Of a DNA stretch of 64,000 nucleotides, positions 1-27,975 are shown one piece after another. Origin of the DNA: Escherichia coli (GTDB taxonomy: Bacteria > Pseudomonadota > Gammaproteobacteria > Enterobacterales > Enterobacteriaceae); assembly GCF_003334765.1 (NCBI RefSeq), contig NZ_QOWT01000002.1; one strand, given 5' to 3'. The notes beneath the pieces are model-generated. The model was given only the letters and a program-made list of their open reading frames with translations. It was not told the origin of the DNA and did not search any database. Position 1 is the stretch's first letter, and every line of letters begins with the position of its first letter. The position numbers and the translations under genes were made by a program.

Positions 1-337
1 TCCGGTAGAACTATTAATGAAAGTACAACTGGGCGGCGGAACCAATATCGCCAGTGCCGTGGAGTATGGTCGGCAACTTATTGAACAACCAGCAAAAAGC
101 GTCATTATCCTCGTGAGCGATTTTTATGAAGGGGGTTCATCATCATTGCTGACGCATCAGGTGAAAAAGTGTGTCCAGAGCGGCATCAAAGTGCTGGGAC
201 TGGCAGCGCTCGATAGCACAGCAACGCCTTGCTATGACCGCGATACGGCCCAGGCGCTGGTTAATGTCGGCGCACAAATAGCCGCCATGACGCCGGGCGA
301 GCTGGCATCATGGCTTGCAGAGAACCTTCAGTCATGA
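1..337 (+). CDS. yehP: VWA-domain protein YehP, C-terminal fragment (gene starts upstream of window)
   Basis: ORF open to the window edge, stop at 335-337; recognised C-terminal sequence. Confidence 0.8.
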   Translation, partial: PVELLMKVQLGGGTNIASAVEYGRQLIEQPAKSVIILVSDFYEGGSSSLLTHQVKKCVQSGIKVLGLAALDSTATPCYDRDTAQALVNVGAQIAAMTPGELASWLAENLQS

Positions 338-2337
338 ATTCACTACGTCCGGAATTATTAGAACTGACACCACAGGCACTGACGGCGTTAAGCAATGCCG
401 GTTTTGTTAAGCGCAGCCTTAAGGAACTGGAAAATGGCAACGTCCCGGAAATCAGCCATGAGAACGGCGCTTTAATCGCCACCTTCAGTGACGGTGTCCG
501 TACCCAGCTGGCGAACGGCCAGGCACTGAAAGAGGCTCAGTGCACCTGTGGGGCCAGCGGCATGTGCCGTCATCGCGTGATGCTGGTGTTAAGTTATCAA
601 CGACTTTGTGCTACCGCCCAGCCTGCGGAAAAAGAAGAAGAGTGGGATCCGGCAATCTGGCTGGAAGAACTGGCTACCCTGCCCGATGCCACCCGCAAAC
701 GCGCGCAGGCGCTGGTCGCTAAAGGCATCACCATTGAGTTGTTCTGTACGCCGGGCGAAATTCCCTCTGCCCGCTTACCGATGAGCGATGTGCGTTTTTA
801 TTCCCGCAGCAGCATTCGTTTCGCCCGTTGTGATTGTATTGAAGGCACTCTTTGCGAACATATCGTACTGGCGGTACAGGCCTTCGTCGAGGCCAAAGCG
901 CAGCAAGCAGAATTTAACCATTTAATCTGGCAGATGCGCAGCGAACACGTCACATCATCTGACGATCCGTTTGCCAGCGAAGAAGGCCAAACGTGTCGTC
1001 AATATGTTCAGCAATTAAGCCAGGCATTATGGCTTGGCGGCATCAGCCAGCCGCTTATTCACTACGAGGCCGCTTTCAGCCGCGCGCAGCAAGCGGCGGA
1101 ACGCTGCAACTGGCGATGGGTGAGTGAATCGCTACGGCAACTGCGCGCCAGCGTTGATGCCTTCCACGCCCGCGCAAGCCATTATCATGCCGGAGAATGC
1201 TTGTGTCAGCTTGCCGCATTAAACAGTCGATTAAATTGCGCACACGAAATGGCGCAGCGCGACAGTGTTGGTGAAATTCCTCCCATGCCGTGGCGCACGG
1301 TCGTTGGCGCAGGCATTGCCGGAGAAGCAAAGCTTGATCATCTGCGGCTGGTGTCTTTAGGTATGCGTTGCTGGCAGGATATTGAGCATTATGGTTTACG
1401 CATCTGGTTTACCGATCCCGACACCGGCAGTATTTTGCACCTTTCGCGCAGTTGGCCGCGAAGTGAACAGGAAAACTCACCGGCAGCTACGCGTCGGCTG
1501 TTTAGTTTTCAGGCTGGCGCACTGGCGGGCGGGCAAATTGTTTCACAAGCAGCAAAACGCAGTGCCGATGGCGAGCTGCTGTTAGCTACCCGCAACCGCT
1601 TAAGCAGCGTTGTGCCGCTGTCGCCTGATGCCTGGCAAATGTTGAGCGCGCCGTTACGCCAGCCGGGCATTGTGGCTTTGCGGGAATATTTACGCCAGCG
1701 TCCCCCCGCCTGCATACGGCCTCTTAATCAGGTCGATAACTTATTTATTCTGCCGGTCGCTGAGTGTATTTCGCTCGGTTGGGATAGCAGCCGCCAGACG
1801 CTGGATGCGCAGGTAATCAGCGGCGAAGGTGAAGATAATCTGCTGACGTTATCACTGCCAGCCTCAGCCAGCGCGCCTTATGCCGTTGAACGCATGGCGG
1901 CGCTTTTGCAACAAACAGACGACCCCGTGTATCTGGTTTCTGGCTTTGTCAGTTTTGTTGATGGGCAATTGACACTGGAACCACAGGTAATGATGACAAA
2001 GACTCGTGCCTGGGCGCTGGACGCAGAAACTGCGCCTGTGGTGGTATCACTACCTTCTACCAGCGTTCTGCCTGTGCCGTCTACTGCTCATCAGTTGCTG
2101 ATGCGCTGCCAGGCGTTACTTATTCAACTGCTCCATAACGGCTGGCGCTATCAGGAACAGAGCGCTATTAGTCAGGCAGAGTTGCTGGCGAATGACCTCA
2201 CCGCGGTGGGTTTTTATCGGCTGGCACATGTGTTGGCACAATTTCGTAATACAGAAAGCGAGGCACGGGTAGAAGCAATGAATAACGGTGTTTTGCTTTG
2301 CGAACAATTATTCCCCATGCTTCAGCAACAAGGATGA
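334..2337 (+). CDS. yehQ: SWIM zinc-finger protein YehQ, function unknown
   Basis: Long ORF; ATG at 334 overlaps yehP stop (ATGA); two CxC-Xn-CxH motifs. Start 310 vs 334 uncertain. Confidence 0.8.
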   Translation: MNSLRPELLELTPQALTALSNAGFVKRSLKELENGNVPEISHENGALIATFSDGVRTQLANGQALKEAQCTCGASGMCRHRVMLVLSYQRLCATAQPAEKEEEWDPAIWLEELATLPDATRKRAQALVAKGITIELFCTPGEIPSARLPMSDVRFYSRSSIRFARCDCIEGTLCEHIVLAVQAFVEAKAQQAEFNHLIWQMRSEHVTSSDDPFASEEGQTCRQYVQQLSQALWLGGISQPLIHYEAAFSRAQQAAERCNWRWVSESLRQLRASVDAFHARASHYHAGECLCQLAALNSRLNCAHEMAQRDSVGEIPPMPWRTVVGAGIAGEAKLDHLRLVSLGMRCWQDIEHYGLRIWFTDPDTGSILHLSRSWPRSEQENSPAATRRLFSFQAGALAGGQIVSQAAKRSADGELLLATRNRLSSVVPLSPDAWQMLSAPLRQPGIVALREYLRQRPPACIRPLNQVDNLFILPVAECISLGWDSSRQTLDAQVISGEGEDNLLTLSLPASASAPYAVERMAALLQQTDDPVYLVSGFVSFVDGQLTLEPQVMMTKTRAWALDAETAPVVVSLPSTSVLPVPSTAHQLLMRCQALLIQLLHNGWRYQEQSAISQAELLANDLTAVGFYRLAHVLAQFRNTESEARVEAMNNGVLLCEQLFPMLQQQG

Positions 2338-2415
2338 AATAGTGCTTTTTACTAAGAGTTCTACTCCAGTTCCGGACTGCTCACGCCACGGTATTAGGCA
2401 TATTCTATATAGCCC

Positions 2416-2438
2416 CTGGTGAGAGTCACCAGTTTCTT
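2416..2438 (+). terminator. Probable intrinsic terminator after yehQ
   Basis: CTGGTGA / TCACCAG stem followed by TTTCTTG. Confidence 0.5.
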
Positions 2439-2461
2439 GATTAAATAAAATGGAGTTTTAC

Positions 2462-2923
2462 ATGAAGGCTTTCAATAAGCTGTTTTCCCTCGTTGTTGCA
2501 TCTGTTCTGGTTTTCTCTCTTGCTGGCTGCGGTGACAAAGAAGAATCGAAGAAATTCAGCGCCAATCTGAACGGCACTGAAATTGCCATTACCTATGTCT
2601 ACAAAGGTGACAAGGTGCTTAAGCAATCTTCTGAAACCAAAATTCAATTTGCCTCCATTGGTGCAACCACCAAAGAAGATGCTGCCAGGGCACTTGAGCC
2701 GTTAAGCGCCAAATACAAAAACATCGCGGGTGTTGAAGAAAAATTAACCTATACCGATACCTACGCGCAGGAAAACGTGACTATCGATATGGAAAAAGTG
2801 GATTTTAAAGCCCTGCATGGTATTTCAGGAATCAACGTTTCTGCTGAAGATGCCAAAAAAGGTATCACTATGGCGCAAATGGAACTGGTGATGAAAGCCG
2901 CTGGTTTTAAAGAAGTGAAATAA
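2462..2923 (+). CDS. yehR: Lipoprotein YehR (DUF1307)
   Basis: Signal peptide with lipobox LAGC; start at second in-frame ATG. Confidence 0.85.
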   Translation: MKAFNKLFSLVVASVLVFSLAGCGDKEESKKFSANLNGTEIAITYVYKGDKVLKQSSETKIQFASIGATTKEDAARALEPLSAKYKNIAGVEEKLTYTDTYAQENVTIDMEKVDFKALHGISGINVSAEDAKKGITMAQMELVMKAAGFKEVK

Positions 2924-6103: not shown

Positions 6104-6835
6104 ATGGCGCTTTACACAATTGGTGAAGTGGCGTTGCTTTGTGATATTAATCCTGTCACGTTACGCGCGTGGCAGAGGCGTTACGGATTGCTGAAACCGC
6201 AACGGACAGACGGCGGTCATCGGCTGTTCAACGATGCCGATATTGACCGGATCCGCGAGATCAAACGCTGGATCGACAACGGCGTGCAGGTCAGCAAAGT
6301 TAAAATGCTGCTCAGTAATGAAAATGTTGATGTGCAGAACGGCTGGCGCGATCAGCAAGAAACATTACTGACTTACCTGCAAAGCGGCAATCTACATAGC
6401 CTGCGAACGTGGATCAAAGAGCGCGGTCAGGATTACCCCGCCCAGACACTCACCACACATCTGTTTATTCCTCTGCGCCGACGGCTTCAGTGCCAACAAC
6501 CGACTCTCCAGGCGCTGCTGGCGATCCTCGACGGCGTACTGATCAACTACATCGCCATTTGTCTGGCTTCGGCACGTAAAAAACAGGGTAAAGATGCGCT
6601 GGTGGTTGGCTGGAATATTCAGGATACCACCCGTCTGTGGCTGGAGGGCTGGATTGCCAGTCAACAAGGATGGCGCATTGATGTCCTCGCCCACTCGCTC
6701 AATCAACTACGCCCTGAACTATTCGAAGGCCGTACATTGCTGGTGTGGTGCGGTGAAAATCGAACCTCCGCCCAACAGCAGCAACTCACCAGTTGGCAAG
6801 AACAAGGCCATGATATTTTCCCACTCGGCATTTAA
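6104..6835 (+). CDS. mlrA: MerR-family transcriptional regulator MlrA
   Basis: 243 aa ORF with N-terminal MerR HTH; recognised sequence. Confidence 0.9.
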   Translation: MALYTIGEVALLCDINPVTLRAWQRRYGLLKPQRTDGGHRLFNDADIDRIREIKRWIDNGVQVSKVKMLLSNENVDVQNGWRDQQETLLTYLQSGNLHSLRTWIKERGQDYPAQTLTTHLFIPLRRRLQCQQPTLQALLAILDGVLINYIAICLASARKKQGKDALVVGWNIQDTTRLWLEGWIASQQGWRIDVLAHSLNQLRPELFEGRTLLVWCGENRTSAQQQQLTSWQEQGHDIFPLGI

Positions 6836-16149: not shown

Positions 16150-16322
16150 GATGAGCATTCAGATAGTGGTTCACGCGCACGGGTTGCGCACCGCCGGAGT
16201 AAGGATTTACTGAGGCTAGCGACGCCATCATAACGAGCAAAAAGTGCGATCGTCAAAGGAGAATCGTGAGGAAATGCTGCATTGCTGACATTTACGCCAG
16301 CAATGCAACGTCAAAGAACTTT

Positions 16323-27789: not shown

Positions 27790-27975
27790 CGCATCCGGCA
27801 TTTGGTTCCTGTCGCCGGATGCGGCTTGAACGCCTTATCCGGCCTACAAAACCATACAAATCAGTATGTTGAGCTTATTGTAGGCCGGATAAAACGCGCC
27901 AGCGTTGCATCCGGCATTTGGCTCCTGTTGCCGGATGCGGCGTGAACGCCTTATCCGGCCTACAAAACCACACAG
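27790..27975. repeat. BIME: cluster of REP copies
   Basis: Two near-identical direct REP units (GCCGGATGCGGC..CGCCTTATCCGGCCTAC) and an inverted partial copy between preA and mglC. Confidence 0.85.

Follow-up and report, generated by a model that had tools for sequence, protein, structure and literature searches.

A conserved yehL-yehM-yehP-yehQ cassette of Escherichia coli may encode a targeted AAA+/VWA remodelling machine

What is the function of yehP and yehQ, two adjacent Escherichia coli genes that RefSeq names by their domains, a VWA domain protein and a SWIM zinc finger family protein? The question is raised by a stretch of 64,000 nucleotides of E. coli DNA (contig NZ_QOWT01000002.1; the whole stretch is referred to below as the window), which opens within yehP and continues into a complete yehQ. 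The SWIM and VWA annotations and the YehL subfamily of MoxR ATPases are already known from RefSeq and the literature, and in the literature on yehQ, the other yeh genes, DUF5682 and DUF4132 we found no functional study. An earlier interpretation of the locus, made from the letters of the window and referred to here as the sequence-only reading, suggested that YehQ could be the nucleic acid- or protein-recognition component of a machine built from an ATPase and a VWA protein. Our analysis places yehQ in a fixed gene cassette that recurs far beyond E. coli, and tentatively supports such a machine, with a putative hydrolase as a further part. The features at the start of the window are as follows.

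1..337, + strand: 3′ end of yehP, residues ~268-378 of 378, C-terminal part of the VWA domain (RefSeq)
334..2337, + strand: full-length yehQ coding sequence (CDS), 667 aa (open reading frame list; RefSeq WP_001373876.1)
334..337, + strand: ATGA overlap of the yehQ start with the yehP stop, a candidate translational-coupling junction (sequence; compared in 11 other loci)

The first 2,700 bases of the window are found at 100% identity in the chromosomes of many E. coli strains, and in several of them, including NZ_OZ121069, the identity extends over the first 25 kb. When the first 2,700 bases were searched against complete E. coli genomes, the locus was identified in 5,419 of 5,426, at a fixed site. 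As the sequence-only reading had noted, the ATG of yehQ (334-336) overlaps the TGA of yehP (335-337). The N-terminus of YehQ is kept among its homologues and the start codon is preceded by AGAGAA, which resembles a Shine-Dalgarno sequence and is replaced by GGAGAA in other Escherichia clades, Klebsiella, Erwinia and one distant lineage (L014). An identical ATGA junction is present in Escherichia clades, Klebsiella, Erwinia and three distant lineages (L014, L024 and L025), and in the remaining loci the two genes are separated by a gap, or share an overlap, of no more than 25 nt. Because this tight junction is conserved, translational coupling of yehQ to yehP is plausible. We also considered public entries in which YehP is fused to YehQ, YehM to YehP or YehM to YehL, and rejected them as evidence of interaction; they probably arose as artefacts of frameshifts where the genes overlap. 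These entries (P0008, P0069, P0230, P0271, P0299 and others) are mostly E. coli singletons, and in one high-GC entry the linker resembles out-of-frame translation.

The predicted architecture of YehQ comprises two SWIM domains, two helical bundles and a beta-rich region.

ahead of SWIM domain 1, + strand: N-terminal helices (AlphaFold model)
448..612, + strand: SWIM domain 1, aa 39-93 (Pfam SWIM at aa 56-88, ligands, model)
730..903, + strand: SWIM domain 2, aa 133-190 (Pfam SWIM at aa 160-183, ligands, model)
979..1266, + strand: central helical bundle, aa 216-311 (AlphaFold model)
1306..2019, + strand: beta-rich region with two putative OB-like barrels, about aa 325-430 and 470-562 (AlphaFold model)
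2083..2331, + strand: C-terminal helical bundle, aa 584-666 (AlphaFold model)

The two CxC-Xn-CxH motifs of SWIM type that had been picked out from the letters are present at 541-573 and 829-861, and both have the form CxCx5CxH. The first, CTCGASGMCRH, provides the ligands C70, C72, C78 and H80; the second, CDCIEGTLCEH, provides C166, C168, C174 and H176. A family search across 1.84 billion representatives returned 1,190 relatives of YehQ, 401 of them below 1e-30, from which we aligned 100 diverse members that are 24-63% identical to the window protein. The C-C-C-H set of SWIM 1 was invariant (100/100 homologues), which is far beyond chance, and that of SWIM 2 was retained in 86/100. The remaining 14 family members lack the SWIM 2 zinc ligands and possess those of SWIM 1; SWIM 2 may have a structural role or be dispensable. 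On YehQ alone the Pfam SWIM profile (PF04434) scores weakly, with an i-E of 0.0013 and 18.7 bits for the first copy and an i-E of 0.16 for the second. SWIM was nevertheless the sole recurrent Pfam family among the 100 homologues (65/100 at E<=0.1, 8/100 at E<=0.001). The profile signal for the fingers is thus weak, but the invariant ligands and the fit of the predicted secondary structure support their assignment. NCBIfam profiles gave no match to YehQ or to the YehP tail.

The AlphaFold (AF2) model of YehQ has a predicted local distance difference test score (pLDDT) of 94.7 and a predicted template modelling score (pTM) of 0.92. In this model each SWIM motif is formed by short strands (three in SWIM 1), followed by a helix that begins from the CxH. 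The top Foldseek matches in the Protein Data Bank (PDB) are tandem OB-fold DNA binders, namely RPA70 DBD-A/B, p202 HIN, LEF-3, POT1 and SSBs; their probability reaches 0.99 but their E value is only 3e-3, which is weak. With moderate confidence, we assign the beta-rich region as two OB-like barrels. By sequence, the PDB contained no relatives of YehQ, YehM, YehP or YehI. YehQ shares with other SWIM proteins (PF04434) the CxCxnCxH motif, which it carries twice, each time on a strand-then-helix unit; it differs from them in the fusion of these units to a helical bundle and two OB-like barrels and in its fixed MoxR-VWA operon, a combination that we did not find described. The recognition role proposed for YehQ gains support from the two OB-like barrels of a high-confidence model, and YehQ looks like the targeting subunit of a machine.

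The remaining parts of such a machine would be encoded next to yehQ. In E. coli the gene order is a MolR-like gene and yehI (both DUF4132), yehK, yehL (AAA+), yehM (DUF5682), yehP and yehQ. We surveyed this cassette by a scan of one genome per species and by look-ups of distant YehQ relatives. The order AAA_5, DUF5682, VWA_CoxE, YehQ is common to Escherichia, Klebsiella, Intestinirhabdus and Erwinia and is identical in 8/8 independent distant loci, which include Thorsellia, a Mesorhizobium metagenome-assembled genome (MAG) and a high-GC actinobacterium-like genome. The linkage of yehQ to ATPase and VWA genes, on which the sequence-only reading had leaned, was present in each of the 11 enterobacterial and 8 independent distant loci that we examined. 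In all loci the cassette genes are co-directional and their junctions are tight or overlapping. DUF4132, often as WGR-DUF4132, adjoins the cassette in 7/8 distant loci, mostly upstream, in one case between yehM and yehP and in one downstream. Judged by these gene orders, the conserved unit consists of five components, not three. Sequence identity in the distant loci is 60-63% for YehL, 56-57% for YehP, 35% for YehM and 27-30% for YehQ, and the DUF4132 copies of the duplicated pair are ~37% identical. The cassette is carried on chromids or plasmids in some taxa, and its spread is patchy, as a unit. Matches to the cassette on E. coli "plasmids" were set aside, being mostly mislabelled chromosomes or very large replicons.

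The motor-like part of the cassette carries intact sequence motifs. That the upstream yehL encodes a MoxR-class AAA+ protein, as the sequence-only reading had stated, agrees with its K-12 annotation, and one of the seven MoxR subfamilies is named after YehL (PMC3893208). YehL orthologues match Pfam AAA_5, and the same Walker A (GEPGTAKS), Walker B (VRFEE), sensor (ATAN) and arginine (ALKRRF) motifs recur without change in the 8 distant sequences compared. By sequence, its nearest solved relatives are the AAA domains of midasin (E 3e-10). YehP is a protein of 378 aa without an extra domain, whose orthologues match Pfam VWA_CoxE and VWA_2 in precomputed annotation. Its metal ion-dependent adhesion site (MIDAS) is complete: D222-x-S224-x-S226, T281 and D307 do not vary among 9 distant orthologues, and two of these residues are encoded inside the window (Thr281 at 41-43 and Asp307 at 119-121). 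On YehL and YehP, NCBIfam gave only sub-threshold, generic AAA and VWA matches.

The model of YehM shows at the N-terminus a parallel beta-sheet core, the one common to the TIKI/TraB/ChaN/erythromycin-esterase (Ere) superfamily, and its structural matches include proteins that were named as TIKI superfamily members (PMC6254334). Across 40 sequences there is no variation in the motifs G-x-R-H-H-S-P, E-G-P-x-D, R-E-x-x-M and G-G-x-H, nor in residues H11, H12, E35, E83, R175, E176 and H202. These motifs resemble the 2His/2Glu plus basic-residue signature of active superfamily members, and the N-terminus of YehM is probably a hydrolase domain with candidate activity. The remainder of the protein, ~500 residues, is modelled as HEAT-type helical repeats, a fusion by which YehM differs from the rest of this superfamily. 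In Pfam, YehM matches DUF5682 only and the TIKI-type relationship is not detected. Of the two DUF4132 proteins, the MolR-like one has an N-terminal WGR domain (E 2e-18) in addition to DUF4132, and YehI has DUF4132 only, without WGR.

The cassette genes are under selection as well as conserved in order. Between species, the ratio of non-synonymous to synonymous substitution rates (dN/dS) is 0.09-0.125 for yehQ, 0.08-0.12 for yehM and 0.03-0.08 for yehL and yehP; these values cover yehLMPQ, the molR rows being unreliable as a result of paralogue hits, and K-12 yehQ was treated by direct codon count. They indicate purifying selection on yehL, yehM, yehP and yehQ, with the motor the most constrained. 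Full-length YehQ makes up public clusters of 11,049 and 4,644 proteins, and many truncated variants are present too.

Individual strains carry lesions in the cassette. In K-12 MG1655, codon 616 of yehQ is changed from GAG to TAG (E616*, window 2179-2181) and the last 52 residues are lost, so that K-12 YehQ is 614 aa in length (K-12 locus L023, 17101-18945); molR of K-12 is also split, into yehF (WGR) and the yehH pseudogene. Any screen done in a K-12 derivative thus works with a damaged cassette, and these lesions may explain missing phenotypes. ATCC 8739 (NC_010468.1) equals the window over the first 2,700 bases and has a TGG to TAG change in yehP (W215*, L001 11843-11845), which is annotated as a pseudogene; in NZ_OZ121069 all the genes are intact. 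With 57 mismatches over 14.7 kb, ATCC 8739 is not the exact source of the window. Since the W215* site is ~160 bases upstream of the window start, the window cannot reveal the yehP allele of its source.

We also observed unusual divergence of this region within the species. For the yehP-yehQ stretch (window 1-2700) the best match is only 90-95% identical in 1,446 of 5,421 E. coli records, and for the 25-kb stretch (window 1-25000) such a best match occurs in 8 of 5,455. Compared with K-12, yehQ has 41 synonymous and 34 non-synonymous codon differences, concentrated outside codons 351-450. This divergence suggests allelic mosaicism or recombination.

Taking together the observed gene order, motif conservation, fold assignments and purifying selection, we propose that the cassette may encode an ATP-driven remodelling machine, with YehL and YehP as its motor and grip, YehQ as its targeting subunit and YehM as its hydrolase. 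We regard this as a tentative reading, somewhat short of probable, whose elements of assembly, binding and catalysis we infer. Characterised MoxR-VWA pairs are described as chaperone-like maturation factors, with the VWA/MIDAS protein presumed to keep hold of a substrate peptide and the AAA+ ring to supply the force (PMC3893208, PMC7159879). By analogy with such pairs and with midasin, the YehL ring would pull on or remodel its target at the expense of ATP, and YehP would grip this target through the MIDAS site. YehQ, probably with the WGR-DUF4132 protein or proteins, would direct the machine to a nucleic acid or nucleoprotein complex, the nucleic acid most likely being single-stranded or damaged DNA. 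YehM, a candidate protease or esterase, would supply the catalysis, acting on the substrate in the grip of YehP.

Two known machines offer the closest comparisons for the remodelling function. RavA-ViaA, the second MoxR-VWA pair in E. coli, likewise consists of a MoxR-family AAA+ protein beside a VWA/MIDAS partner in one operon, with presumed chaperone-like remodelling (PMC3893208). However, YehL belongs to another MoxR subfamily, the yeh cassette adds DUF5682/TIKI-like, SWIM-OB and WGR-DUF4132 proteins that RavA-ViaA is without, and it has no known client such as Nuo or Frd. Midasin/Rea1, which acts in eukaryotic ribosome assembly, resembles the yeh system in combining an AAA_5 motor, long helical elements and a substrate-gripping MIDAS domain. 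In contrast with the separate yeh proteins, which have one AAA domain per chain, it is a single polypeptide of ~4,900 residues with six fused AAA domains, and the yeh cassette is without a link to ribosome biogenesis.

As to regulation, E. coli molR is among the genes published as LexA-regulated and as having a known SOS box (PMC6590174). We located a LexA-type box, CTGGATAAAATTACAG (CTGG-N8-ACAG with one mismatch), directly 5′ of the molR ATG (L021 4534-4549). The arms of this box, CTGGAT...ACAGGGATG, are conserved in Intestinirhabdus alba (L008 1589-1604), where the flanks have diverged and a DUF4132 gene directly abuts yehL. A perfect LexA box was found neither in the cluster nor upstream of it, and in the sequence upstream of the distant cassettes the SOS-box patterns of alpha-proteobacteria and Gram-positive bacteria matched only with one mismatch and no more often than by chance. 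A second input is indicated by K-12 data, in which yehL and yehM are derepressed in hns/stpA mutants and the intergenic region is bound by H-NS (PMC3686432). This yehK-yehL spacer (L001 7524-7829) has a GC content of 43% and measures ~0.3 kb in K-12 and in the lineage of the window. The E. coli cluster thus appears to have two inputs, the LexA box at its first gene and an H-NS-silenced promoter at yehL. In Deinococcus, genes for WGR and DUF4132 proteins are strongly induced upon depletion of the DdrO repressor (PMC8533742). The GC content of yehLMPQ is 54-56%, compared with 43-49% in the adjacent 1-kb blocks (L001 8001-14000 versus its flanks), which together with H-NS silencing fits an old horizontal acquisition of the cassette.

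The LexA box hints at an SOS link, which we extend to yehPQ by inference. A more specific proposal, to which we assign little probability, is best stated conditionally: the cassette would be an SOS-linked extraction machine on DNA, in which YehQ (by SWIM and OB) and WGR-DUF4132 recognise single-stranded or broken DNA, YehL-YehP grip a stuck protein and the TIKI-type domain of YehM cleaves it. If true, this would make the cassette a convergent bacterial counterpart of the eukaryotic pairing of an AAA+ protein with a protease (Cdc48/p97 with SPRTN/Wss1) in the clearance of DNA-protein crosslinks, or of midasin-type factor removal.

Several observations weigh against a DNA-directed remodeller that includes a hydrolase. 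The ligand of a SWIM domain can be a protein instead of DNA, and ChaN, the best structural match of YehM, is a non-enzymatic haem binder. DNA-repair genes did not recur beside the cassette in the 8 distant loci. Several strains tolerate lesions in the cassette, which is therefore dispensable in culture. As for the SOS link, one-mismatch LexA boxes number 3 in 8 kb compared with 2.7 expected and so are not significant alone, and neither Erwinia nor the distant loci showed such a box. The E. coli box also lies ~9 kb upstream of yehP and is separated from yehL by the 300-bp AT-rich spacer that has its own H-NS-bound promoter.

Of the other explanations, the one that survives best would make the cassette an anti-phage or other conflict system, a fifth MoxR-vWA-centred type in which YehQ and WGR-DUF4132 sense invader nucleic acid, YehL-YehP gate activation and YehM is a toxic protease-like effector. 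We consider this unlikely. In its favour, four conflict systems built around a MoxR-vWA pair, with sensors and peptidase effectors added to it, have been described (Kaur et al. 2020, PMC7159879), and these ternary systems resemble the yeh cassette in their combination of a MoxR-vWA core with sensor/effector-like proteins and in their inheritance as a unit. The faster evolution of the putative sensors (YehQ and YehM) than of the motor (YehL and YehP), the duplication of DUF4132 and the marked divergence of the yehQ region within E. coli would all be in keeping with conflict. The same applies to the patchy spread of the cassette as a unit, partly on chromids and plasmids, to its GC contrast with AT-richer flanks and silencing by H-NS, and to the recurrence of lesions in K-12 yehQ and molR and in ATCC 8739 yehP. 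On the other side, the third partners in the yeh cassette are DUF5682, the SWIM-OB protein and DUF4132, and the cassette is without VMAP, iSTAND, FtsH or beta-propeller components and has no effector domain fused to its VWA protein. The survey of the ternary systems makes no mention of SWIM, WGR, DUF4132 or YehL (PMC7159879). Judged by its sequences, the cassette has the features of a MoxR-VWA system but falls outside the four described ternary conflict systems. PADLOC-DB 2.0 matched 0/6 cassette proteins (YehQ, YehP as tail or full length, YehI, YehK, YehL and YehM), and gave no match for YehR. In E. coli the cassette belongs to the syntenic core, with its fixed site in nearly all genomes, is syntenic across the Enterobacteriaceae and lies outside defence islands; its dN/dS values are those of ordinary purifying selection, and it was not found on phages.

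A role as a chaperone for metalloenzyme maturation or cofactor insertion is improbable. The cassette would then act like CoxD-CoxE, which serves the Mo-Cu centre of CO dehydrogenase, or like NorQ-NorD or CbbQ-CbbO, all of which pair an AAA_5-type MoxR ATPase with a VWA protein. The VWA_CoxE match of YehP fits this family of systems, as does the historical label of the first gene, molR, "molybdate metabolism regulator". Mutants in molR that need high molybdate were reportedly described in 1990. The K-12 molR is nonetheless broken, being represented only by yehF and the yehH pseudogene. In addition, the known pairs adjoin the genes of their client enzymes, whereas no candidate client recurs beside the yeh cassette (0/8 distant contexts), and they are without SWIM, OB, WGR or TIKI-type components, modules that are foreign to known cofactor-insertion systems. 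Characterised MoxR proteins are indeed described as maturation factors for specific complexes (PMC3893208), but in Deinococcus the molybdenum-cofactor genes were unchanged when the WGR and DUF4132 genes were induced (PMC8533742).

That the cassette is a decaying relic without current function in E. coli is very improbable, since the nonsense mutations E616* in K-12 yehQ and W215* in ATCC 8739 yehP, the split K-12 molR, the truncated public YehQ variants, H-NS silencing and the apparent deletion of the whole region from the viable reduced-genome strain DGF-298, whose description lists these genes, are set against full-length genes in window-identical strains and in the large majority of sequences, a dN/dS of 0.03-0.125 for yehL, yehM, yehP and yehQ, and catalytic and ligand motifs that are invariant across phyla.

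Downstream of yehQ, the window contains four further features.

2416..2442, + strand: terminator-like hairpin CTGGTGA-GAG-TCACCAG followed by TTTCTTGATT, in the yehQ-yehR spacer (consensus scan only)
6104-6835, + strand: mlrA (yehV), annotated as an intact CDS in window-matching strains
16154-16234, - strand: Peptidase-S11 cis-regulatory RNA motif (Rfam, 73 bits, above the gathering score)
27883-27960, - strand: naRNA4, a nucleoid-associated non-coding RNA (Rfam, 88 bits, above the gathering score)

The hairpin between yehQ and yehR is weak and the fold of the whole spacer is unexceptional (z -1.2); it is possibly the operon end. The mlrA gene is what we take to be the integration site of the Stx1 prophage VT1-Sakai in O157:H7. 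The GenBank record of this prophage holds mlrA with yehP and yehQ and therefore includes chromosomal flank, and the match of the cassette to VT1-Sakai was rejected as such a flank within a prophage record. The strain that matches most closely is annotated with a cirA pseudogene, which the window lacks.

For the biology of E. coli, these results draw attention to one of only two MoxR ATPases of this species (PMC3893208): the YehL system is its unstudied MoxR system and is present in nearly every E. coli genome. The cassette recurs in a fixed five-gene form in Proteobacteria and in a high-GC actinobacterium-like lineage. Natural isolates, the source of the window among them, are the right background for its study, given the truncated yehQ and broken molR of K-12. 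The fold assignments turn domains of unknown function into a testable model, that of an AAA+/VWA remodeller that is directed to its target and has a hydrolase of its own, and whose substrates are possibly proteins bound to DNA.

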